Virus record (IMG/VR): IMGVR_UViG_3300037424_000485
Coordinates: 128,001-192,000 of that record
DNA from: a virus
Taxonomy: Duplodnaviria > Caudoviricetes
Reading direction: 5' to 3' (one strand)
Length of the DNA stretch: 64,000 bases
In this document: positions 1,986-11,028 of the stretch, one piece after another
Layout of the letters: each line of letters opens with the position of its first letter
Position numbering within the stretch: the stretch's first letter is position 1
Made by a program: the position numbers and the translations under genes
The notes under the pieces: model-generated
The model's database searches: none
What the model was told of the DNA's origin: nothing
What the model saw: only the letters and a program-made list of their open reading frames with translations

Positions 1986-2086
1986 TTTTAAATCCTTTTT
2001 ATCATTGTTATGTCTTATCATATCTAAGGGTATAACCCCTTCGTTAATTCTAAAATATATCAATGATTATTTTTGTAATTAAAATT

Positions 2087-2161
2087 TGGTATCCCTACCA
2101 AGAATCGAACTTGGATCACAGCCTTATAAGGACTACGCACTAACCGTTGTGCTATAGGGAT
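2087..2161 (-). tRNA. tRNA-Ile(TAT)
   Basis: Full cloverleaf, anticodon loop CT-TAT-AA, TTCGATT T-loop, encoded CCA. Confidence 0.85.
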
Positions 2162-2225
2162 ATTAAGTTGAATGGATCATATATGACCCTTAACACTATG
2201 TTAGTGGTTTTTATATGAACTAAAA

Positions 2226-2304
2226 TGGTAGGGGCAAAGGGGGTCGAACCCTCACTGGATGGATTTTAAATCCACTATCTCTGCCACAATTGGATTATAC
2301 CCCC
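2226..2304 (-). tRNA. tRNA-Leu(TAA)
   Basis: Anticodon arm GTGGA-TT TAA AA-TCCAT, TTCGA T-loop, CCA end. Confidence 0.8.
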
Positions 2305-2312
2305 ATATTATT

Positions 2313-2606
2313 TTACAGCTTTGAAGCTGTCTTTAATGTGCGTGTCCTAAAAAACCCATCAAATTCAGGTACTTCCAATACAAGCAATCTAGCATATCTA
2401 CTAGTGTAGTTATTATTCAATTTAAAACCATCTTCACTAATAGTTTCAAAACTAATATGCCATCTAACCCTTTCAAATATTGCCTTTGCAGAGTATGTAT
2501 CAAAACCTCTTCTTTTTACTTCTTCTGCAAATCGTTTGAATGCTTTAAAAACAATAGGATTGTTTTTATGATATTCCCAAAATTTAGCATCAATCACATC
2601 CGACAT
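2313..2606 (-). CDS. hypothetical phage protein
   Basis: ORF between tRNAs; FWEYHKNNP..F...YSAKAIFERVRW motif typical of small phage proteins. Confidence 0.7.
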   Translation of the reverse strand: MSDVIDAKFWEYHKNNPIVFKAFKRFAEEVKRRGFDTYSAKAIFERVRWHISFETISEDGFKLNNNYTSRYARLLVLEVPEFDGFFRTRTLKTASKL

Positions 2607-2632
2607 ATTTTCCTCATCTGTTATTGTTTTAA

Positions 2633-2707
2633 TGGTGCGCCTACTAGGAATCGAACCTAGATAGTCTATTTAGAAGACAGATGCACTATCCATTGTACTA
2701 TAGACGC
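2633..2707 (-). tRNA. tRNA-Arg(TCT)
   Basis: Cloverleaf, TCTGT-CT TCT AA-ATAGA anticodon arm, CCA end. Confidence 0.85.
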
Positions 2708-2715
2708 ATATAATT

Positions 2716-2789
2716 TTGAGCACCAGAAGGTAATCGAAACTTCGTATTCTGTATGTAAAACAGACATTCTTCCATTGAACTAAGGGAGC
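2716..2789 (-). pseudogene. degenerate tRNA-Val(TAC)
   Basis: D arm and TCTGT-TT TAC AT-ACAGA arm intact; acceptor and T stems mismatched; ends CAA. Confidence 0.5.
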
Positions 2790-3116
2790 ATATACTACTT
2801 ATCTGTTTTGGATTTGAACCAAAACCCCCACGTTGCGGATTTACGCTTACCATAATTAAGTCAGAATCGAACTGACAACTACCCAAGACATGGTGTACTA
2901 ACCAATTATACGACCAGAATATTTATTTTATTATACCTCTTATAAAACAGCCAGTATACCAAAAGCTAAGAACCATAATACCCCAACTTTCTGTTTGAGA
3001 GGATGCTAGGATATCCTCAAAGCCCATCGGGTTACGGCAAATGACACCGGGAGACTTCAGTTCTGTCTTGATTAAAGTGAGTGAACTAAGCGTTTCCTAC
3101 AATGCTCACTATATTT

Positions 3117-3192
3117 TGGAAGCGGGTATCGGAACTGCCCCGATCTTATACTTGGTTATGAGCCAAGGAAGACACTATGCCTACCACCCGCA
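3117..3192 (-). tRNA. tRNA-Met(CAT), initiator-like
   Basis: CTTGG-CT CAT AA-CCAAG arm; 1:72 mismatch as in fMet tRNAs; non-canonical T-loop; CCA end. Confidence 0.75.
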
Positions 3193-3200
3193 ATACCTTC

Positions 3201-3347
3201 TTATTTATCTACAATATCTTCAAGAGGTTTGTAACATTCATAACATACCATAACTACCTTGGATGCGTCAAGCTGCTTTTGAATATCTTTTTCTTCATCA
3301 GAAGACATACTAAGATCGATATCTTTACCACATGAATAGCACTTCAT
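3201..3347 (-). CDS. 48-aa CxxC...CxxC small protein (below ORF-track cutoff)
   Basis: MKCYSCGKDID...MVCYECYKPLEDIVDK*. Confidence 0.55.
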   Translation of the reverse strand: MKCYSCGKDIDLSMSSDEEKDIQKQLDASKVVMVCYECYKPLEDIVDK

Positions 3348-3445
3348 TTTACACACCCCATAGATTCATCATTGCCAACAGTTCAAAATGAACCATCTAC
3401 CCTAATTAAAATATATATTAATCCTTTCATATCATGATATTAAAA

Positions 3446-3524
3446 TGGAGCGGATAGGAGGTAACGATCCCCTTGTGTATGGTTGGAAACCACATGTCCC
3501 ACCTAGGAACTCAACTCTATCCGC
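3446..3524 (-). tRNA. tRNA-Gly(TCC)
   Basis: GCGGATA/TATCCGC acceptor, TT TCC AA loop, CCA end; atypical D and T arms. Confidence 0.7.
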
Positions 3525-3527
3525 GCA

Positions 3528-3758
3528 TTATTCATCTACAGTAAAAAACTCACAGCAAGGATATTTTCTCCCCTGCTCATCAAATGGTTCTGTTCCGTCT
3601 TCTTCTTGATTACAGGAACAACCCCTTGGCACACAATAATCACAATAGTAATCATTATGTTGTATACCGCCATAACTTGGCATATATAACCAAGTTCCTT
3701 TATTACCACAATTACAATACCCTACAAGCTCACCAGTAGCTATTTCCATACCTGCCAT
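3528..3758 (-). CDS. Cys-rich hypothetical protein
   Basis: ORF; CNCG...YYCDYCVPRGCSCN...YPCCEF pattern. Confidence 0.65.
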   Translation of the reverse strand: MAGMEIATGELVGYCNCGNKGTWLYMPSYGGIQHNDYYCDYCVPRGCSCNQEEDGTEPFDEQGRKYPCCEFFTVDE

Positions 3759-3789
3759 ACAATAACCTTATAAGATATTAAAACGCGCC

Positions 3790-3965
3790 CAACTCATGTT
3801 AATTATACAGTCGGTATGCCTACCAAAGACTGATCCGCTATACATTTAGGGAGCAGGGTACAGCAATGAGCTAGATCAAATTTAAGGGGATTTTCACCCC
3901 CACTCTCTTTACATAGGCTTACAGATGGTTATGCATCCCCATTACTTCCCTATGCCGTGATCTAA
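3790..3965 (-). ncRNA. candidate structured ncRNA of unknown class
   Basis: Nested helices TAGATCA/TGATCTA, GCATAGG/CCTATGT, GGGG-TGAAAAT-CCCC, GCTCAT/ATGAGT, CAGTC/GACTG enclosing GGTA-GGCA-TACC; GC-rich, no ORF. Confidence 0.55.
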
Positions 3966-3981
3966 GAGTAAGACCATGTTT

Positions 3982-4056
3982 TGGCGACCTAGAAGGGATG
4001 TGCGCCCTCACTGTACACGCTGACAACGTGCTGCACTACTATTATGCTACTAGGCC
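3982..4056 (-). tRNA. tRNA-Asp(GTC)
   Basis: GCACG-TT GTC AG-CGTGT arm, CCA end, non-canonical T-loop CGCACAT. Confidence 0.8.
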
Positions 4057-4064
4057 ATATTCTT

Positions 4065-4745
4065 TTATACTTTAGATATCATCAGTTCTGCTTTTTCAAT
4101 AACAGCATTAACAACATCATATGCAGCATTATATTTAATACTATTCTTACGTCCAGCCTGTTTTGCCAGAATTTCCAGCATAATAGATCGTCCGTTTCCA
4201 TAGGGAAGTTTACCTTCCCTTAATCCTTTTGCTACTGAGGAACGAAAACCTCCATTCCCATCTTCAAGTGTATCAGCGATAGACCCCAACAGAGAAATAA
4301 CGGGAGCTAATGCTTCTTGTTTGATCTTCTGATCATCAGCCCATTTCTTCTCAGTAAGCTCATAGTCAGTCAGGCCATCATTTTTTTCTCTCTGAGCTTG
4401 TAACTTTTCTTCACGTTCTTTATTACGCTTCTCTTCACGAAGCTTTCTATCTCTAGCAAGCTTTATTTCATGCACAACACTGGTAAGACCATCATCACCA
4501 GATTTCTTAACACACTCAGATCCAACGGTAAAGAGCTTTCCATTGGCATCTTTAATAATATAATGAATACTCAAAGCAGTATAACAATACTTACATGAAC
4601 CAACGGTAAAGGGAAGATTTTTAAGCATTTCATTCCAGTTTTCTGGATAATTAGCCATCCATTCTCTTGAAGGCATTTCCCAAATCCCATTAACTTTAAA
4701 GGGTGCTTTGCCAAGTCCTTCTACTTCCCATTTATGAATGCTCAT
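4065..4745 (-). CDS. hypothetical phage protein with a CxxC/H/C zinc site
   Basis: ORF; LGKAPF...SCKYC...IHY...VGSECV; promoter upstream. Confidence 0.75.
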   Translation of the reverse strand: MSIHKWEVEGLGKAPFKVNGIWEMPSREWMANYPENWNEMLKNLPFTVGSCKYCYTALSIHYIIKDANGKLFTVGSECVKKSGDDGLTSVVHEIKLARDRKLREEKRNKEREEKLQAQREKNDGLTDYELTEKKWADDQKIKQEALAPVISLLGSIADTLEDGNGGFRSSVAKGLREGKLPYGNGRSIMLEILAKQAGRKNSIKYNAAYDVVNAVIEKAELMISKV

Positions 4746-4779
4746 ATCATAACCTCTGGTTAATTTTGATTATGATATA

Positions 4780-4807
4780 TATTACAACTTTTCTTTAACC
4801 TTGTCAA
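4780..4807 (-). promoter_or_regulatory. sigma70-like promoter
   Basis: TTGACA-17 nt-TAATAT upstream of 4065..4745. Confidence 0.5.
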
Positions 4808-4828
4808 GAAAATAATATTAATTAATTT

Positions 4829-4902
4829 TGGCATACCGTAAAGGTGACGCTCCCTTGTTTTCTGGTTTGGAATAAGATGTTCTACTGTTGAACTAACGAT
4901 CT
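4829..4902 (-). tRNA. tRNA-Trp(CCA), partly degenerate
   Basis: TT CCA AA loop and CCA end; two mismatches in the anticodon stem. Confidence 0.55.
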
Positions 4903-4911
4903 GTACATTTT

Positions 4912-4985
4912 TGGTAGTGGTAAGTGGAATCGAACCACTATCTCAACCTTATCAGGATTGCCCTTTACCGTTAAGGCATACCACT
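4912..4985 (-). tRNA. tRNA-Ile(GAT)
   Basis: Canonical cloverleaf, CT GAT AA loop, CCA end. Confidence 0.9.
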
Positions 4986-4995
4986 ATTTAATTTT

Positions 4996-5081
4996 TGGTG
5001 GGCCAGGTAGGATTCGAACCTACACACCATCGAAGATAAGAGCTTCTAAGACTCCCGTGTCTACCGTTACACCACTGGCCC
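4996..5081 (-). tRNA. tRNA-Leu(TAG)
   Basis: Canonical cloverleaf with long variable arm, CT TAG AA loop, CCA end. Confidence 0.9.
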
Positions 5082-5130
5082 ATAATTATTTCATATCCCA
5101 CGTGGGATAAACCGCCATATTTTATTAAAA

Positions 5131-5291
5131 GATTGAACAGGCAGGAGTCGAACCTGCATATCAGGATTACGTTAGGCTGTTACCTGAAAAGTGGTTTGGC
5201 CCATGAGCCTAGAAGATGTCGTTTCCGTTTCATCCCCATCCATATTGGTTTGCCCCACACTCCCCTATACCAGTTCGGGTACAATTCAATC
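5131..5291 (-). ncRNA. tRNA-like RNA whose anticodon arm is replaced by a multi-helix domain
   Basis: 8-bp acceptor GATTGAAT/GTTCAATC, D-like arm GTACC/GGTAT, T arm GCAGG-TTCGACT-CCTGC, variable arm TCAGG/CCTGA, about 85-nt structured insert. Confidence 0.6.
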
Positions 5292-5456
5292 TTTATTTCT
5301 TTTATCTTATCCATAACCTACGGACAATGTTTCTTCCAATCCATTTATTCATACTACGTTTGAATATAGGAATTAATGACCCTTTCATTAGAGATCTAAC
5401 AATAGCTCTAATGTCATTGTTTATAATATTTAGTTTAAAAAGAGTCATTTTATTCC

Positions 5457-5660
5457 TTATGCCTCATGGTAAATTTCTAGTTTCCGTTGGATAGTTTCGT
5501 AAGACTCAGAACAGTAAAAAGGCTCATCTGAACCAGCTACAAAAACGGAACACTTTTCAACATCTAGCTCATGGATGGCAACTATATAGGATGTTAAAAT
5601 GGATAATTTCTTGCCATTATGGTTTGTAAATAGTTGTTTCTGCATAACAATACACTCCAT
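5457..5660 (-). CDS. hypothetical protein
   Basis: ORF; FlbD-like spacing (IVAI...CSVFVAG...YCSESYETI). Confidence 0.55.
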   Translation of the reverse strand: MECIVMQKQLFTNHNGKKLSILTSYIVAIHELDVEKCSVFVAGSDEPFYCSESYETIQRKLEIYHEA

Positions 5661-5746
5661 ATCCCTTTACCAATTTGGACAATATTAAATCAATTAACAC
5701 TATCTATGCACTGTAACATAACCTATGTTTAAAAGCAATAGTTATG

Positions 5747-6799
5747 TTACAGATTTATATATTTATCAAAGAACCATTTCCTACCCTTATTAGAGATAGC
5801 ACTTGTGACATCTTTAACAATAAGGCCACTAGCAATTAGAGTATCTACCTCTTCTTTCATTACATCTGTAACAACCCATTTCAGAAACTTACCCGTATTG
5901 GATACATCAGGAGTAATGTTATTGGCTTCAAATATATCTCTTATCCCCTGCTCAAGCCTGTTCTCTGTTACTGCGTAATCAACAAACTCTTTAACGGATG
6001 CCAATTTCTCAGGATCGATAGGAGCGAGGCACTTTACCTTAGATCCTGAATGCTTTTCGCCCTTAACTTTAAAACGAAACATATTGCCATTGATATTAGA
6101 AGACCAAACTGCACCCTCACCAATAATAGAACCATTTTCCGAGGTGGCCCCTAACTTTTTAGCAACAGGACATTCTCTTTCTATCTCATTGGTGATATCA
6201 ATTAACTCATTCTGAGATAATTTGGGATCGTTAAGATCTACCTCTATATTATATGTCCCAAAATAATCAATATGGAACATTCTGATATCATGGTATTTCT
6301 CTACATAAAAATCAAACCAATTTGTTTCTTTTTCATTCTCATCAAGTGGGTTAATTGTATGTTTAACACCAAAGATAACAAACATCTTTTCTAATTGGGA
6401 TACACCAACACCACCTGTAATGCCTTTTCCACACCATTCGCCATATATAGAAACAACACCTTCAGTAAGATCATACGCTTTAACGAGCAGGCTGAACAAT
6501 TCTTTAAAAACAACCTTGTTTTTCTCAACGTAACATGCAAAGCCTTTGTTATCATCGGGAATAGTTATAATCCTTTCTCTGGATTGTACCCACATATCAC
6601 CAGTGGTAATATCAAAACATACCCCTGCATTTGTGCCATGGATTTTTACTCTACCTGTGAAATTAATTACAGGGAGTATTTTGTTGTAATCATATATGAC
6701 TTTTCCTTTATCATCCTTGCCATTATATCTAAGGTGATCTACAAGACCCCTTACAGCAGACCCATACACACTTATGGATGGAAATTTAATACAATTCAT
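5747..6799 (-). CDS. RNA ligase, Rnl2-like nucleotidyltransferase
   Basis: Motif I VKIHGTN, IYGEWCG (motif III), GEGAVW (motif IV), FKVKG (motif V); start refined to MNCIKF. Confidence 0.85.
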   Translation of the reverse strand: MNCIKFPSISVYGSAVRGLVDHLRYNGKDDKGKVIYDYNKILPVINFTGRVKIHGTNAGVCFDITTGDMWVQSRERIITIPDDNKGFACYVEKNKVVFKELFSLLVKAYDLTEGVVSIYGEWCGKGITGGVGVSQLEKMFVIFGVKHTINPLDENEKETNWFDFYVEKYHDIRMFHIDYFGTYNIEVDLNDPKLSQNELIDITNEIERECPVAKKLGATSENGSIIGEGAVWSSNINGNMFRFKVKGEKHSGSKVKCLAPIDPEKLASVKEFVDYAVTENRLEQGIRDIFEANNITPDVSNTGKFLKWVVTDVMKEEVDTLIASGLIVKDVTSAISNKGRKWFFDKYINL

Positions 6800-7011
6800 T
6801 ACAATACCTCGTCTATACAATTATGGCTCATGTCATCTTGATGCCAAGCTCTACATTTTGAACATTTTATGCATCTACCAACCGCAACATCCATTTGCTT
6901 ATTATATTTTACAGATAATCCTATATATATCGCAAATAGTATGAATAAAATAGATACTGCCCATACTATAATACCTGTCACTGTACAGATGTCGGTTAGA
7001 ATTGTCAACAT
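6799..7011 (-). CDS. hypothetical membrane protein
   Basis: ORF with an N-terminal hydrophobic helix; TAATG coupling to the ligase. Confidence 0.55.
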   Translation of the reverse strand: MLTILTDICTVTGIIVWAVSILFILFAIYIGLSVKYNKQMDVAVGRCIKCSKCRAWHQDDMSHNCIDEVL

Positions 7012-7019
7012 TTAATTAC

Positions 7020-7235
7020 CTATTTTACAAGTTTCTTACCATCAACAGCCAGGATATCTACATTGCCTGTATAGGTATCAATTTCTACATCAAATTTTAC
7101 TTCATATAATGCATACGAGAATTCTCTTTTTACATCATTTGAGAGCGAAAGACCATATTCGTCTTCAATACTATTAATAAAACTATAATTCTCATCTTTA
7201 CTGCTATGACAATACATAACTGATTTAATTTTCAT
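7020..7235 (-). CDS. hypothetical protein
   Basis: ORF in tandem minus-strand array. Confidence 0.65.
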   Translation of the reverse strand: MKIKSVMYCHSSKDENYSFINSIEDEYGLSLSNDVKREFSYALYEVKFDVEIDTYTGNVDILAVDGKKLVK

Positions 7236-7328
7236 TTCGAATTCACATTTTCCTTAATTAACATTTAGCCGATCTTAATAGATCGTTACCAACATACGCT
7301 ACGTGGAAGCAGTTAATTATTATATGTT

Positions 7329-7400
7329 TCGGAATGAGAGGGGTCGAACCTCTGATCTCTAGTTCCCAAAACTAGCGGCATACCACTTGCCTACACCCCG
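7329..7400 (-). tRNA. tRNA-Pro(TGG)
   Basis: CGGGGTG/CATTCCG acceptor, CTAGT-TT TGG GA-ACTAG arm; CCA not encoded. Confidence 0.85.
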
Positions 7401-7409
7401 GTATAATTT

Positions 7410-7748
7410 TTACCAGTAGAACCAACCAGCATCTTTAATCCATTTATCAAATGAATAACCATCATAATCCATATGACGTAAGACACGTGAAGTCTCTACT
7501 TTATCTTTTGCACGTCTTTCACGATTTAACATCCGTGTATAGGACTTTGGCGCATGGCCATCCCATCCATAACCACTTTTAGTTTCTCTATGGTACTTTG
7601 AAACAGTGTATTTATCATCTCTAATTGAACAATTTCTTGAACAATGAATACCAAAACACCGATCATTAACACATTGCTCTATGCGATAACAATATGTTTC
7701 TAAAATTTGGTCGTTAGTGACCTTTTTTCTTCTGTATGTTCTTGACAT
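7410..7748 (-). CDS. hypothetical phage protein
   Basis: ORF with AGGAG RBS; MSRTYRRK basic start. Confidence 0.7.
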   Translation of the reverse strand: MSRTYRRKKVTNDQILETYCYRIEQCVNDRCFGIHCSRNCSIRDDKYTVSKYHRETKSGYGWDGHAPKSYTRMLNRERRAKDKVETSRVLRHMDYDGYSFDKWIKDAGWFYW

Positions 7749-7839
7749 TTTGAATCTCCTATATATGTATAATTACATATTCGAGTATCAAAATTATTAT
7801 AAATTGTTTTCATTATATTTTTCCTTACATTTTAAAAAT

Positions 7840-7913
7840 TGGGAGGCCCGGATGGTTACGCTCCATCGTTGATCGGTTAAAAGCCGAATATTCTACTATT
7901 AAATTACGAACCC
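7840..7913 (-). tRNA. tRNA-Lys(TTT)
   Basis: TTCGG-CT TTT AA-CCGAT arm, CCA end, T-loop AGCGTAA. Confidence 0.85.
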
Positions 7914-7957
7914 ATACATTTCTTACTAGCATGGATTCATAATTCATCCATACTTTA

Positions 7958-8098
7958 TTATTTACCTTGACCTCTTGACTTCTTTTTCTTAGCACTCTTG
8001 CTCTTGAGGTTGGTATTTTCACTATTACCGATTGAAGTTTTCTTCTTACGGCTAATATCTGATTTTTTTGTTGTTGATGCTGTCTTCGTCTTTGCCAT
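7958..8098 (-). CDS. 46-aa basic protein ending RGQGK (not in ORF track)
   Basis: MAKTKTASTTKKSDISRKKKTSIGNS...KKKKSRGQGK*; AAGGGA RBS. Confidence 0.6.
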   Translation of the reverse strand: MAKTKTASTTKKSDISRKKKTSIGNSENTNLKSKSAKKKKSRGQGK

Positions 8099-8169
8099 TT
8101 TAATTCCCTTATTATAACGTTAAATTAATAGTATATTTTACTTCTGACTTTGTGTCAACTTATATTTAC

Positions 8170-8500
8170 CATATATATAATATACCACACTGTTAGCCTT
8201 CGCTATTGAGCAGGGTATCAGCTTCATCCCGCTCGTCAACCGACAAATGGCTGTAATGGTTCCAGCCGGAGTAGGTATTAAACCAATGACACATCCAGGT
8301 TTTCCCTTGGCACCGCATACAGGATCTTGCATCAACTCCGTCACAGGTCGGACAGCCTTTTTCCAGATATGGAATACAACTATAATTTCTTAGCTACTTT
8401 ATCAACACTTCTCAGGAACCACCCTGTCAGTTTATATCAATTTTGCCAACGGTAACTTACTAGATTCAACTGGTTAGGTGTCCTCTCTCAGTAACCTTAA
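8170..8500 (-). ncRNA. candidate large structured ncRNA
   Basis: Many helices: CAGG/CCTG, GACAG/CTGTC, TTCCA/TGGAA, CGGAGT/ACTCCG, GAAA-capped hairpin, GGCTG/CAGCC, GAGC/GCTC, TAGC-GAAG-GCTA; GC-rich relative to the genome. Confidence 0.6.
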
Positions 8501-8504
8501 ATTT

Positions 8505-8587
8505 GTGAATAGGGTTGGAGTCTAACCAACTAACCTAATTACGGATTTAGGTAAATCTACATGTTATCCTAAGGTTCATGTAATCAC
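8505..8587 (-). pseudogene. tRNA relic with a shrunken anticodon loop
   Basis: Acceptor GTGATTA/TATTCAC, CATG/CATG D stem, GATTT-ACCT-AAATC, T arm GTTGG-TTAGACT-CCAAC; no CCA. Confidence 0.4.
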
Positions 8588-8597
8588 TATATTCTTT

Positions 8598-8684
8598 TGG
8601 AAGAAGATGGAGGTATCGCGCCCCTACGTTTTACCGTACCCTAGGGTTCAAGCCTAGTTTGTAATAACTTTTACGGCACCTTCC
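8598..8684 (-). tRNA. tRNA-Ser(TGA)
   Basis: CTAGG-CT TGA AC-CCTAG arm, long variable arm, CCA end. Confidence 0.8.
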
Positions 8685-8769
8685 TAACAATCAATTAAAG
8701 GACACGAATATTATCTACCCTTCGTTATTTAAGATTAGTCGGTTGGCAGACTAATCTCCTAAAAACTTC

Positions 8770-8847
8770 TGGTGCGCCTGATAGGAATCGAACCCATGCA
8801 AATCCCAACTCTTCAGGATGGTGCTCTTCCAACTGAGCTACAGACGC
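8770..8847 (-). tRNA. tRNA-Phe(GAA)
   Basis: GCTCAGTTGGAAGAGC D arm, CT GAA GA loop, TTCGATT, CCA end. Confidence 0.8.
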
Positions 8848-9014
8848 ATATACTTTAAAAACAGAATGTAGGAATCGAACCTACCAATTCGGGATCATAC
8901 CCCGATATAAACCAATAATCCAACTTATTTAAAATATTAACTAGTATCAATATTAAATGTTGGTGGTCACTAGTGTACTAGCATGTTACCATAACATCTT
9001 TTCTGCTTTAATTC

Positions 9015-9104
9015 TGGTGGGGGCGCATAGAATCGAACTATCCCGGCAGCCACCTACTTTGTTTTACCGAATGGTTTTACAGACCACTTGTAGGAAACGA
9101 CCCC
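9015..9104 (-). tRNA. atypical tRNA-Tyr(GTA) lacking a D arm
   Basis: GTGGT-CT GTA AA-ACCAT arm, T arm ATAG-TTCGATT-CTAT, ACCA end; CCTAC pairs with GTAGG in the variable region. Confidence 0.6.
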
Positions 9105-9118
9105 ATAATCTTTAAAAA

Positions 9119-9236
9119 TGGAATAATAAGAAGTCCATAGAGTCTCCCAACTCTAATTCGCACCTGGGAGAAGATACCGATCTAACCGACTAAGCCCTAT
9201 TCGTAGGGAATTATCTTCAGACCTCTTCTTATATCC
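9119..9236 (-). ncRNA. candidate CCA-ended branched ncRNA
   Basis: Terminal stem GGATATAAGAAG/CTTCTTATTATTCC-A, internal GAAGATA/TATCTTC, CCCTA-CGAA-TAGGG, TCCCA/TGGGA. Confidence 0.5.
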
Positions 9237-9436
9237 AAAAAGCTATATAGTGGTATAGCCAATTGATGAAATTGTTCACCTCACTATACAATTTAATTCA
9301 AAATTATTTGGCTTTTGTTCTCAGAAGTACCATAACTCCTACAACTGGATTATCCAGAAGATTTTAATTAGTTATTCCGTCAACTACCATGTATCATTAA
9401 ATTCTTTATCTACTATACTTTAACTATTTTATAATG

Positions 9437-9703
9437 TCAAGCTATAATTTTACATTTATCATCAGGATATATATAAATTATATGATCCTTATTAACCATC
9501 AATATCTCAGCAGTTATATCATCATTTTTTACATTTGTCAGTATAATAAATTGTTTATTATACGAGTTGAGCCAATCACTTAACCTAGCTCCTTTTTTTA
9601 CATTAACACAGGCACAAAACTCATTCTCTATATTAGTAATCTTAACAGATACTGATATCATATCGACTGTATTTTTCTCATAATCTATAATATTAGCCAT
9701 CAT
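9437..9703 (-). CDS. hypothetical protein
   Basis: ORF; RLSDWLN...FIILTNV...VNKDHI pattern of a small beta-rich bacterial family. Confidence 0.65.
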   Translation of the reverse strand: MMANIIDYEKNTVDMISVSVKITNIENEFCACVNVKKGARLSDWLNSYNKQFIILTNVKNDDITAEILMVNKDHIIYIYPDDKCKIIA

Positions 9704-9756
9704 CTACCTATTTTGTTAATGATATCAACTTTTTTTAAAAAAATTTAAAATAAATA

Positions 9757-9795
9757 AGATGCCCATTCTAATCGTCATCAAAATGGGCATCTTTT
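9757..9795. terminator. intrinsic terminator-like hairpin
   Basis: AAGATGCCCATT...AATGGGCATCTTTT. Confidence 0.55.
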
Positions 9796-9847
9796 GTGTA
9801 TAATCCAGGATACAAAAATCTATTGTTTTATATCCAACACCATGCCT

Positions 9848-10004
9848 TGATGCACCGTCCTCTAACGCTGTGAGGTATTATGCGGTATCATCACTTTTAT
9901 GTCTAGAAGCCTTCTATATCGTGTGATCATCACTCACACATGGGGAATACCCATAATTTTGGCGACCACCTAGTTTCCCGATATGAATATAGTTTCTATG
10001 ACAT
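9848..10004 (-). ncRNA. candidate two-domain structured ncRNA
   Basis: ATGTC(A)TAGAA/TTCTAGACAT, ATATCG/CGATAT, ATGGG/CCCAT, TGTGA/TCACA; second domain TGATG/CATCA, ACCG/CGGT, CCTC/GAGG. Confidence 0.55.
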
Positions 10005-10053
10005 TTTTACTACTAGTATAGTACATTATTTGTTTATTCTCTTATTATATTAT

Positions 10054-10082
10054 ATTATATAATAAGTAGTCAGAGGTGTCTA
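10054..10082 (-). promoter_or_regulatory. sigma70-like promoter upstream of the ncRNA
   Basis: TAGACA-17 nt-TATAAT. Confidence 0.55.
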
Positions 10083-10157
10083 GACATAATCTACTCCTTA
10101 TTGGTTGAATATGGATTTAGGGTTTCTTCTCAACATCTTCTGCAACTCTATAATTAC

Positions 10158-10186
10158 ATCTTACTCTATTTGATTTAGGATGTCAA
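10158..10186 (-). promoter_or_regulatory. sigma70-like promoter
   Basis: TTGACA-17 nt-TAAGAT preceded by an A-tract (UP-like). Confidence 0.55.
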
Positions 10187-10191
10187 CTTTT

Positions 10192-10614
10192 TTATAGTTT
10201 AGATCCGCAAATCTTACAAAAACCTTTTCCATTATCCGCAATCGGTCTTTTGCACTTGACACAGTTAGTCTTAATCACTCGTTCTGGTGTCTTTTTTACC
10301 TTCTCAACAACTACAGGCTCGACTACAGGCTCAACTACAGGCTCGACTACAGGCTCAACTACAGGCTCGACTACAGGCTCAACTACAGGCTCGACTACAG
10401 GCTCGACTACAGGCTCAACTACAGGCTCAACTACAGGCTCAACTACAGGCTCGATATATTTCTTCTTAGAAGATTTCTTTTTCTTCTTAGAAGATTTATC
10501 AACATCCATTTCTTCTACTCTACCAACAACAATATCCATTTCTTCAATATCAACTGTTGTGTTATTCTCAAGGCCGAGATTATTCTCATCCTCTTCTTTT
10601 TTATACCATGTCAT
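10192..10614 (-). CDS. acidic/basic protein with (EPVV)12 and C-terminal CxxC-CxxC
   Basis: ORF with AGGAGG RBS and TATAAATA upstream. Confidence 0.75.
   Translation of the reverse strand: MTWYKKEEDENNLGLENNTTVDIEEMDIVVGRVEEMDVDKSSKKKKKSSKKKYIEPVVEPVVEPVVEPVVEPVVEPVVEPVVEPVVEPVVEPVVEPVVEPVVVEKVKKTPERVIKTNCVKCKRPIADNGKGFCKICGSKL
10309..10452. repeat. 12-bp tandem repeat x12 (RACTACAGGCTC)
   Basis: Counted directly; encodes EPVV. Confidence 0.95.
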
Positions 10615-10647
10615 AATTTTTTCCTCCTATAGATAAAATACTACTAT

Positions 10648-10655
10648 TATTTATA
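10648..10655 (-). promoter_or_regulatory. T4-type late promoter TATAAATA
   Basis: Exact octamer upstream of the RBS; same octamer upstream of genes at 13629-36, 19245-52, 37641-48, 45645-64, 49804-11, 55617-24, 61741-48; gp55 homologue in window. Confidence 0.65.
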
Positions 10656-10768
10656 AGAGAGTGAAAATTATTATATCAACTTTTCTTTAAATCTTTCATG
10701 ATCCCAATGTCTATATATCTACATAATCAAGAAAAAGAACTTCAATAACAATCACCTTTATTTTTAAC

Positions 10769-10844
10769 TGGAAGCCGGGGAGGGGATAGAACCCTCAACA
10801 CTCAGGTTCAAAACCTGATGCTCTACCAATTGAACTACCCGGCT
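10769..10844 (-). tRNA. tRNA-Gln(TTG)
   Basis: TCAGG-TT TTG AA-CCTGA arm, CCA end. Confidence 0.85.
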
Positions 10845-11028
10845 ATTTTTTATACTTCTCCACTAAACTATCAGCATGGTCTAAAGAAGCATATTCACCA
10901 CAAAGACATATACCAACTGAGTGATCACATCCTTCACCAGATCCCTCATGGTATAATTTTATAATTTCCATAAGATCTTCAATACACTCCACAAGCTCAT
11001 GCTGTATTTTATTCTTATTCATATTCAT
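10843..11028 (-). CDS. hypothetical protein
   Basis: ORF with GAGG RBS; CDHSVGICLC. Confidence 0.55.
   Translation of the reverse strand: MNMNKNKIQHELVECIEDLMEIIKLYHEGSGEGCDHSVGICLCGEYASLDHADSLVEKYKK

Follow-up and report, generated by a model that had tools for sequence, protein, structure and literature searches.

A tRNA-like gene with an unusual core in a phage tRNA cluster

The window, i.e. the whole 64,000-nucleotide stretch that was analysed, comprises bases 128001-192000 of a 204-kb IMG/VR record with a CheckV completeness of 85% and a GC content of 32%. Its genes include those for a tail sheath, long tail fibres, a gp32-type SSB and a large terminase, the last of which is 36-38% identical to the terminases of T4-like cyanomyoviruses, indicating that the phage is a distant T4-superfamily myovirus. 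A minus-strand tRNA cluster at positions 2000-11000 holds 8 genes called by ARAGORN, 3 found with Rfam only and several degenerate look-alikes. Within this cluster, and on the same strand, is a tRNA-like gene of 90 nt, including an encoded CCA, at 9015..9104 (-), with the anticodon GUA and a GC content of 51% compared to 32% for the genome. The gene was called neither by ARAGORN, with default or relaxed settings, nor by the Rfam tRNA model RF00005, and its best Rfam match, to tRNA-Sec (RF01852), scores 25.2 bits against a gathering score of 47. The family covariance model R1 (below), which has the gene among its 72 seed sequences, scores it at 74.2 bits (E 7e-22).

Read as RNA from 9104 to 9015, the gene is GGGGUCGU UU CCUAC AA GUGGU CUGUAAA ACCAU UCGGUA AAACAAA GUAGG UGG C UGCCGG G AUAG UUCGAUU CUAU GCGCCCCC A CCA, with the following features.

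9412..9440 (-): possible promoter TTGACA-17-TATAGT, 11/12 matches, ~300 nt upstream on the same strand; a weak candidate from a consensus scan
9097..9104 (-): acceptor 5′ strand GGGGUCGU, nt 1-8; partner 9019-9026
9095..9096 (-): UU linker, nt 9-10; in the family, U at the first position in 58/72 and at the second (U10) in 70/72
9090..9094 (-): long-range D-like helix strand 1, CCUAC, nt 11-15; partner 9053-9057
9071..9087 (-): anticodon arm, stem GUGGU/ACCAU, loop CUGUAAA; anticodon GUA at 9078-9080
9065..9070 (-): variable stem 5′ strand UCGGUA, nt 35-40; partner 9043-9048
9058..9064 (-): A-rich linker AAACAAA, nt 41-47; linker columns 56% A across the family
9053..9057 (-): D-like helix strand 2, GUAGG, nt 48-52, within the variable-arm loop; from the sequence and family covariation
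9050..9052 (-): UGG motif after GUAGG; in the family, first G in 56/72 and second G in 71/72
9043..9048 (-): variable stem 3′ strand UGCCGG, nt 57-62; crosses the D-like helix
9027..9041 (-): T arm, 4-bp stem AUAG/CUAU, loop UUCGAUU; from the sequence and RNAalifold
9019..9026 (-): acceptor 3′ strand GCGCCCCC; pairs with 9097-9104
9015..9018 (-): discriminator A73 and encoded CCA, as at a tRNA 3′ end

The number of promoter-like sites that the consensus scan finds in this region is not above that in shuffled sequences.

The two acceptor strands face each other over 8 positions, forming 7 pairs, the last a U8-G79 wobble, and one U5-C82 mismatch. Together with the 4-bp T stem, which closes a loop of the GTTCRANYC type, they provide the 8 + 4 = 12 bp stack of a tRNA. 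The anticodon arm is likewise that of a tRNA, with a 5-bp stem and a 7-nt loop that includes U33 and A37. The initial annotation had described an 8-position acceptor with one mismatch, an 8/4 acceptor-T stack, a normal GTA anticodon arm and an ACCA end, and all four are present in the sequence. It had also described the D arm as absent, and this holds: the acceptor and anticodon stems are separated by just 9 nt (UU CCUAC AA), which is too few for a local D hairpin, so the gene has no equivalent of the stem-loop at positions 10-25 of the cloverleaf. A conventional D arm was also rejected by relaxed ARAGORN (-ps80), which finds nothing at 9015-9104.

In place of a D arm, the CCTAC/GTAGG complementarity that had been noticed around the anticodon arm gives a 5-bp helix, strand 1 of which runs on through AA into the anticodon stem. 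Two further elements had been missed. The variable region has its own 6-bp stem, UCGGUA (35-40)/UGCCGG (57-62), which crosses the CCUAC/GUAGG helix and makes the fold a pseudoknot, and GUAGG is followed by UGG. Single-sequence folding of the window gene returns a different structure as the minimum free energy (MFE) fold (-21.1 kcal/mol, z-score +0.62). The acceptor, T and anticodon stems of the proposed fold amount to -13.6 kcal/mol, which becomes -16.4 kcal/mol with the long-range helix added and -19.2 kcal/mol with the variable stem added instead. As the nested MFE structure is a different fold, and more stable than the nested parts of the proposed one, thermodynamics neither supports nor excludes the knot.

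A family of knotted tRNA genes in phages and bacterial tRNA arrays

Viral relatives were collected from IMG/VR by pattern scans anchored on the anticodon arm and either the 5′ spacing or the T loop, and bacterial relatives by the same pattern scan of one genome per GTDB species. These scans yielded 72 distinct members resembling the query (8/4), 45 of them viral, including the window gene, and 27 from bacterial tRNA arrays; the anticodon loop, the GG/CC core of the anticodon stem and the T loop are prescribed by the patterns, so that conservation of these parts is built in and the counts are biased. Pattern scans also gave a second, 7/5 subtype with 16 members, characterized by a 7-bp acceptor, a UA linker, a 5-bp T stem and a CCA that is usually not encoded. 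An exact IMG/VR scan for the anticodon arm of the window gene found one look-alike, L027, in which both the long-range helix (CUUUAC/GUAAAG) and the variable stem (UGUCG/CGGCA) differ by compensatory changes.

ARAGORN misses 87 of the 88 family members (72 8/4 and 16 7/5). G1-C72 is present in 72/72 of the 8/4 members and A73 in 71/72, while CCA is encoded in 33/45 of the viral and 10/27 of the bacterial ones. Most members score 80-97 bits with R1, which places the window copy among the lower-scoring ones.

The bacterial members are mostly from Planctomycetota and Alphaproteobacteria and are always located within dense arrays (22-34 tRNA genes per 8 kb). By ARAGORN, these arrays contain no Tyr gene; the knotted gene occupies a gap between the tRNAs that the program calls. 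A role as the housekeeping tRNA-Tyr of Planctomycetota was rejected on the basis of Singulisphaera sp. PoT, the one complete bacterial genome checked. It also keeps a canonical tRNA-Tyr elsewhere, in a Thr-Tyr-Gly-Thr cluster (L155), so the knotted copy in its 28-gene array is accessory. The tRNA genes of the Planctomycetota arrays on five contigs (L118, L120, L130, L138 and L149) are compact, with 22-34 of them in 8 kb, and mostly have no encoded CCA; they include a tRNA-Met that is 69-70 nt long and has its anticodon at position 30-31.

Both crossing helices covary

In a structure-blind MAFFT alignment of the 72 8/4 sequences, the long-range helix is 80.7% paired and all of its pairs (6/6) have changed on both sides; the variable stem is 88.5% paired with 3/4 pairs covarying, and the 8-bp acceptor is 96.5% paired. 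The structure as a whole is 91.8% paired in this alignment, compared to 69.8% in shuffled and 41-60% in slid controls. From the same alignment RNAalifold, which considers nested structures only, recovered the 8-bp acceptor, the anticodon stem and the 4-bp T stem unaided and reported neither of the crossing helices.

The sequences were then realigned with R1, a model that includes the long-range helix and leaves out the variable stem. In the fitted alignment the long-range helix is 97.5% paired, again with 6/6 pairs changed on both sides, and the variable stem 86.5%, while the 8 pairs of the acceptor are 97.4% paired, with 7/8 changed on both sides. The covariation of the long-range helix is thus equal in strength to that of the acceptor. 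Pair 14-55 is CG in 33, GC in 15, UA in 14, AU in 6 and GU in 4 members, with 0 unpaired, and pair 16-54 is AU in 37, CG in 18, GC in 10 and UA in 7. The eighth acceptor pair, part of the initially proposed 8/4 stack, is kept in 70/72 members (45 GC, 14 UG, 5 AU, 3 CG and 3 UA), and the anticodon stem covaries within the family as well.

Strand 1 occurs in 38 distinct sequences, which form 5.85/6 pairs with their own partners compared to 3.8/6 with the partners of other members. In the 7/5 subtype the topology is identical, with the long-range helix 98.8% and the variable stem 100% paired. The covariation in the 72 relatives, the slid and shuffled controls and the test of own against foreign partners led us to reject a chance complementarity of CCUAC and GUAGG.

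Knotted tRNAs in cultured and GenBank phages

A BLAST search for the same topology in other phages, which the initial annotation had proposed, gave a divided outcome. Queried against GenBank phages, the 801-bp stretch of the window at 8600-9400 matched in the neighbouring tRNA-Phe region only, and the window gene region had no BLAST match in plasmids. A search with a high-scoring family member as the query did find copies in Pseudomonas phages, whose hosts are P. trivialis / P. fluorescens. Phage Rembedalsseter (PQ464593.1, 44629-44716, minus; L156:513-600:+) carries an unannotated Tyr-family copy that lies outside the seed set and scores 86.8 bits with R1; it is the sole tRNA-like locus of that 45-kb genome. 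A related Tyr-family copy (75.7 bits), also unannotated, is present in phage SCYZ1 (MH518298.3; L159:582-670:+). Its long-range helix shows a compensatory change, CCUCAC/GUGAGG against CCCCAC/GUGGGG. In both phages the small terminase gene follows shortly downstream of the copy. A member with the anticodon UCU is carried by a Zobellviridae metagenome phage (PQ867846.1).

Tyrosine identity and the acceptor ends of other anticodon types

Bacterial tyrosine identity resides in A73, U35 and G1-C72 (PMC9976931). The window gene carries all three, along with G34 and a long variable arm, and thus has the identity features of a bacterial tRNA-Tyr.

Two scans did not fix the anticodon to GUA. A narrow one, with GGGG at nt 1-4, UU at nt 9-10 and the anticodon left free, gave only GUA among its tRNA-like matches. 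The other took the same backbone with any anticodon not starting with G, and the following counts hold among the matches listed. At least about 20 distinct phage sequences with the same knot have the anticodon UCU (Arg, AGA codon), including those at L201:7491-7576:+, L169:8691-8777:+, L222:10938-11025:+ and L160:591-678:+, and one has UAU (L164:3883-3971:+). In this UCU/UAU set the long-range helix is 90.5% paired and the variable stem 82.5%, and the UCU-type fold occurs both in the 8/4 frame and in a 7/5-like frame (L167, L211 and L268).

The acceptor ends of the UCU set differ from those of the GUA set at both 1-72 (9 GU, 5 AU, 3 GC and 1 CG among the matches listed) and the discriminator (7 U, 6 G and 5 A), which means that the acceptor end tracks the anticodon. 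Such a change would be expected of aminoacylated tRNAs of different identity, and a decoy would not need it. One can speculate further that phages, and tRNA arrays acquired by bacteria, use a knotted, non-cloverleaf chassis, with at least Tyr(GUA) and Arg(UCU) and perhaps Ile(UAU) versions, that works on ordinary bacterial ribosomes. The altered core may have been retained for evading host nucleases or further factors that recognise the ordinary tRNA body, with synthetase identity preserved; we regard this broader proposal as possible, though doubtful.

Separately, a recurrent phage tRNA(UAU) type (L188:1438-1529:+, L186, L204, L250 and about 12 more) has a 3-bp D stem with a 4-nt loop, lacks the GG and has a variable region of ~30 nt. 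It may represent another non-standard tRNA class.

A proposed D stem rebuilt with a strand of the variable-arm loop

In canonical tRNAs the 3′ strand of the D stem (22-25) is followed by nucleotide 26 and then by 27, while the 5′ strand (10-13) is followed by the D loop, which contains G18 and G19. The knotted genes show the same connectivity at both strands of the long-range helix. Across the family, 1-2 nt join strand 1 to the anticodon stem and the GG follows strand 2 after 1-2 nt, so that the GG, coming after a 6-bp helix and one nucleotide, lies at roughly the chain distance that a 4-bp D stem and nucleotides 14-17 would give. Because both the strand connectivity and the GG distance match, the core can be described as a D arm with its 5′ strand and loop relocated to the loop of the variable arm. 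The extra helix is therefore best taken to be the D stem, one strand of which is now supplied by that loop, and the UGG motif is proposed, from its position, to be the counterpart of D-loop G18 G19.

The window gene is, in all likelihood, a functional tyrosine tRNA in which the D stem has been strand-swapped into the variable arm to give a non-cloverleaf core, as judged from sequence comparison. In such a molecule, the 8-bp acceptor would stack on the 4-bp T stem to form the usual 12-bp arm, and the standard anticodon arm would read UAU and UAC. With no local D hairpin, nt 11-15 (5-6 nt in relatives) would pair with the strand in the variable-arm loop. Strand 1 would hold the place of the canonical D-stem 3′ strand (22-25) and enter the anticodon stem directly, and strand 2 with the conserved GG would hold that of the D-stem 5′ strand (10-13) and G18 G19. 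The variable stem would be retained, knotted with the swapped D arm. The covarying 5-6-bp helix adjoins the anticodon stem; in three dimensions, the conserved UU may link the acceptor to the elbow-side end of the D-like helix, and the RNA may adopt an L-shaped fold with the GG docked on the T loop. Host TyrRS would then charge the tRNA, EF-Tu would deliver it and it would decode the abundant Tyr codons of the phage.

Role of the gene and alternative explanations

Neither ARAGORN nor the pattern scan found a second GUA tRNA in the 204-kb record, in which Tyr codons account for 50 per 1000 codons. No phage-encoded TyrRS was found, PF00579 having no match in the 85%-complete record. Other carriers vary in this respect: the Tyr gene of a 304-kb, 100%-complete phage is solely of the knotted kind, two other huge phages have knotted and canonical Tyr genes near each other, and a canonical GUA tRNA is also present at 14/88 family loci. 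The simplest role for the gene is the supply of tRNA-Tyr to an AT-rich phage that is rich in UAU codons, which fits the rest of its tRNA set (including Ile-UAU, Leu-UAA, Arg-UCU and Lys-UUU). An added benefit is speculative; evasion of host factors directed at the ordinary tRNA-Tyr core would be one example. Inside the tRNA cluster are also an RNA ligase gene (phrog_548, PF09414; 5747-6820 (-)) and a YqeY-like gene (PF09424; 1560-2063 (-)), which may function in tRNA repair or handling.

The initial annotation had left the choice between a functional non-canonical Tyr tRNA and a decoy for anticodon nucleases, and the identity set, the location in tRNA clusters, the 12-bp stack and the CCA favour the former. 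As a tRNA mimic acting outside translation, the RNA would present its Tyr-type anticodon arm, as a decoy or sponge, to a host tRNA nuclease or other tRNA-binding factor and so protect the host or phage tRNA-Tyr. There are precedents, as tRNA-Tyr is a known target of anti-phage defence and the tRNA-Tyr of phage T5 counteracts retron-Eco7/PtuAB (PMC11555353). The RNA ligase gene in the window's tRNA cluster would fit a conflict over tRNA integrity. Also in favour of a mimic are the phages that hold a canonical Tyr tRNA and the knotted form side by side, and Rembedalsseter, where the knotted gene is the sole tRNA-like gene of the 45-kb phage. However, a decoy would need just the parts that a nuclease recognises, yet G1-C72, A73, the 12-bp acceptor/T arm and the T-loop consensus are fixed and CCA is often encoded; moreover, at most loci the knotted gene is the only Tyr decoder among many ordinary tRNAs. 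A decoy function in place of translation is thus unlikely, although the two roles do not exclude each other.

A further reading accepts the family as real. The window copy could be a decaying pseudogene or a weakly active gene, given its U5-C acceptor mismatch, a long-range helix of 5 bp rather than 6, a score of 74.2 bits compared to 80-97 for most members and the several degenerate tRNA-like sequences in the same cluster. But the conserved U10, C11, GG, A73, CCA and T loop are all present, one acceptor mismatch is not unusual, given that 2-3 of the 72 sequences are mismatched at every acceptor column, and the gene is the sole Tyr gene of a phage with 5% Tyr codons, with its GC island intact. 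While the mismatch, the 5-bp helix and the below-average score suggest that this copy could be a weaker member of the family, we consider a decaying or weakly active gene quite improbable. Charging with another amino acid, leucine through A73 and the core shape or serine through the long variable arm, with UAY codons recoded or misread, is highly improbable. In its favour, 8/4 allo-tRNAs are serine acceptors whatever the anticodon (PMC5389517), and leucine identity in E. coli depends on A73 and tertiary core elements and not on the anticodon (PMC9976931). Against it, A73, G1-C72 and U35 are the bacterial tyrosine set, fixed in GUA members only, and the arrays would otherwise have no Tyr tRNA. 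For serine identity, G73 and a long variable arm that is free are usually required, while the variable arm here has 4-6 bp with its loop tied into the knot. The ORFs of the window give no sign of an altered genetic code.

Relation to known tRNAs and tRNA-like structures

With canonical class II tRNA-Tyr(GUA) of bacteria and phages (RF00005), the knotted gene has in common the CUGUAAA loop, G1-C72, A73 and the T-loop consensus. Both also have a long variable region that contains a stem, as well as a 12-bp acceptor/T arm and a tRNA-cluster location. It differs in having no local D hairpin, in a D-like helix that uses a strand of the variable-arm loop and in an 8/4 rather than 7/5 stack. The 8-bp acceptor and 4-bp T stem, as well as the residence in phage tRNA gene clusters, recall the 8/4 allo-tRNAs and the phage (8/4) tRNA-Ser and tRNA-His, and the long variable arm is common to the knotted gene and Ser-type 8/4 tRNAs. 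Those 8/4 and 9/3 tRNAs of Mukai et al. 2017 are reportedly cloverleaves with a normal D arm. Membership of the 8/4 allo-tRNAs was rejected: the gene does have the 8-bp/4-bp arrangement, but it lacks a D hairpin, has A73 and a Tyr anticodon, and the loop of its variable arm is part of the knot. The survey by Mukai et al. 2017 (PMC5389517) covers Ser, His, Cys and Sec species with 8/4 or 9/3 stacks, has no Tyr species beyond one cited title and mentions no pseudoknot. Bacterial tRNA-Sec (RF01852) has an 8-bp acceptor and a long variable arm as well, hence its being the best Rfam match; membership was rejected given the 25.2 bits against 47, a GUA rather than a UCA anticodon, the lack of a 6-bp D stem and a T stem of 4 bp, not 5.

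Absence of the D hairpin is also a feature of metazoan mt-tRNA-Ser(AGY) (PMC7609411, PMC9427863), the mitochondrial RNAs being functional adaptors. The D-armless mt-tRNAs are shortened, have lost the arm and work with adapted mitochondrial partners, whereas the knotted RNA is of full length with the helix and the GG apparently rebuilt elsewhere in the chain, and it would have to work with ordinary bacterial machinery. The tRNA-like structures of plant viruses (TYMV; the BMV TLS, which is tyrosylated; PMC9976931) are pseudoknotted viral RNAs as well, and can be charged. In these, however, the pseudoknot forms the acceptor arm of a non-decoding structure located at a genomic RNA 3′ end, while the phage gene stands on its own, has a true anticodon arm and carries the knot in its core.

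A full-text literature search, which did not cover subscription journals, returned no description of a knotted tRNA fold in phages or bacteria, and the fold appears neither in PMC5389517, which deals with 8/4 tRNAs, nor in PMC7609411, which deals with non-canonical ones. The structured RNA csRNA DNAVirus_1423 of a 2023 viral catalogue (PMC10690425) sometimes overlaps ARAGORN tRNA-Tyr calls. We found the knotted fold in no paper and, judging from the full texts searched, it appears to be undescribed. D-armless tRNAs are otherwise known, from the literature searched, only from animal mitochondria, where the translation machinery is co-adapted. If the proposed fold is correct, widespread tRNAs with a pseudoknot core, presumably served by standard RNase P, TyrRS, EF-Tu and ribosomes, would change the view of the minimal bacterial tRNA architecture. 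They would also explain apparent Tyr gaps in many phage and array tRNA sets, Tyr seeming to be missing because annotation tools miss the knotted genes, and would offer new scaffolds for orthogonal tRNA engineering. The family might in addition show how phage tRNAs evade tRNA-directed defences by structural means, and the cultured Pseudomonas phage carriers make the tRNA question directly testable.

Other RNA features of the tRNA cluster

Several further tRNAs or tRNA-like sequences of the cluster are missed by default ARAGORN (7843-7913, 4832-4902, 8860-8924, 3985-4056 and 2719-2789, all (-)). Some of these have an unusual T loop, AGCGUAA or AGCGUCA, and the anticodons Lys-UUU and Trp-CCA, while the one at 8860-8924 (-), with a truncated D region and an odd AUG anticodon, may be a pseudogene. 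Directly upstream of the Tyr gene, a structured stretch at 9112-9236 (-) has an MFE of -36.5 kcal/mol (z -1.86) and matched no Rfam family; it is closed by AUAAGAAG/CUUCUUAU and contains a 7-bp hairpin, UCUCCCA/UGGGAGA. Finally, directly next to the 3′ end of tRNA-Pro (7329-7400) is a match to the HDV-like ribozyme family RF02682 at 7257-7328 (-), which scores 40.8 bits (E 6.6e-5), below the gathering score of 44. HDV-like ribozymes have been reported downstream of phage tRNAs, where they could cut out the tRNA 3′ end, and the window match is presumably similar to these.
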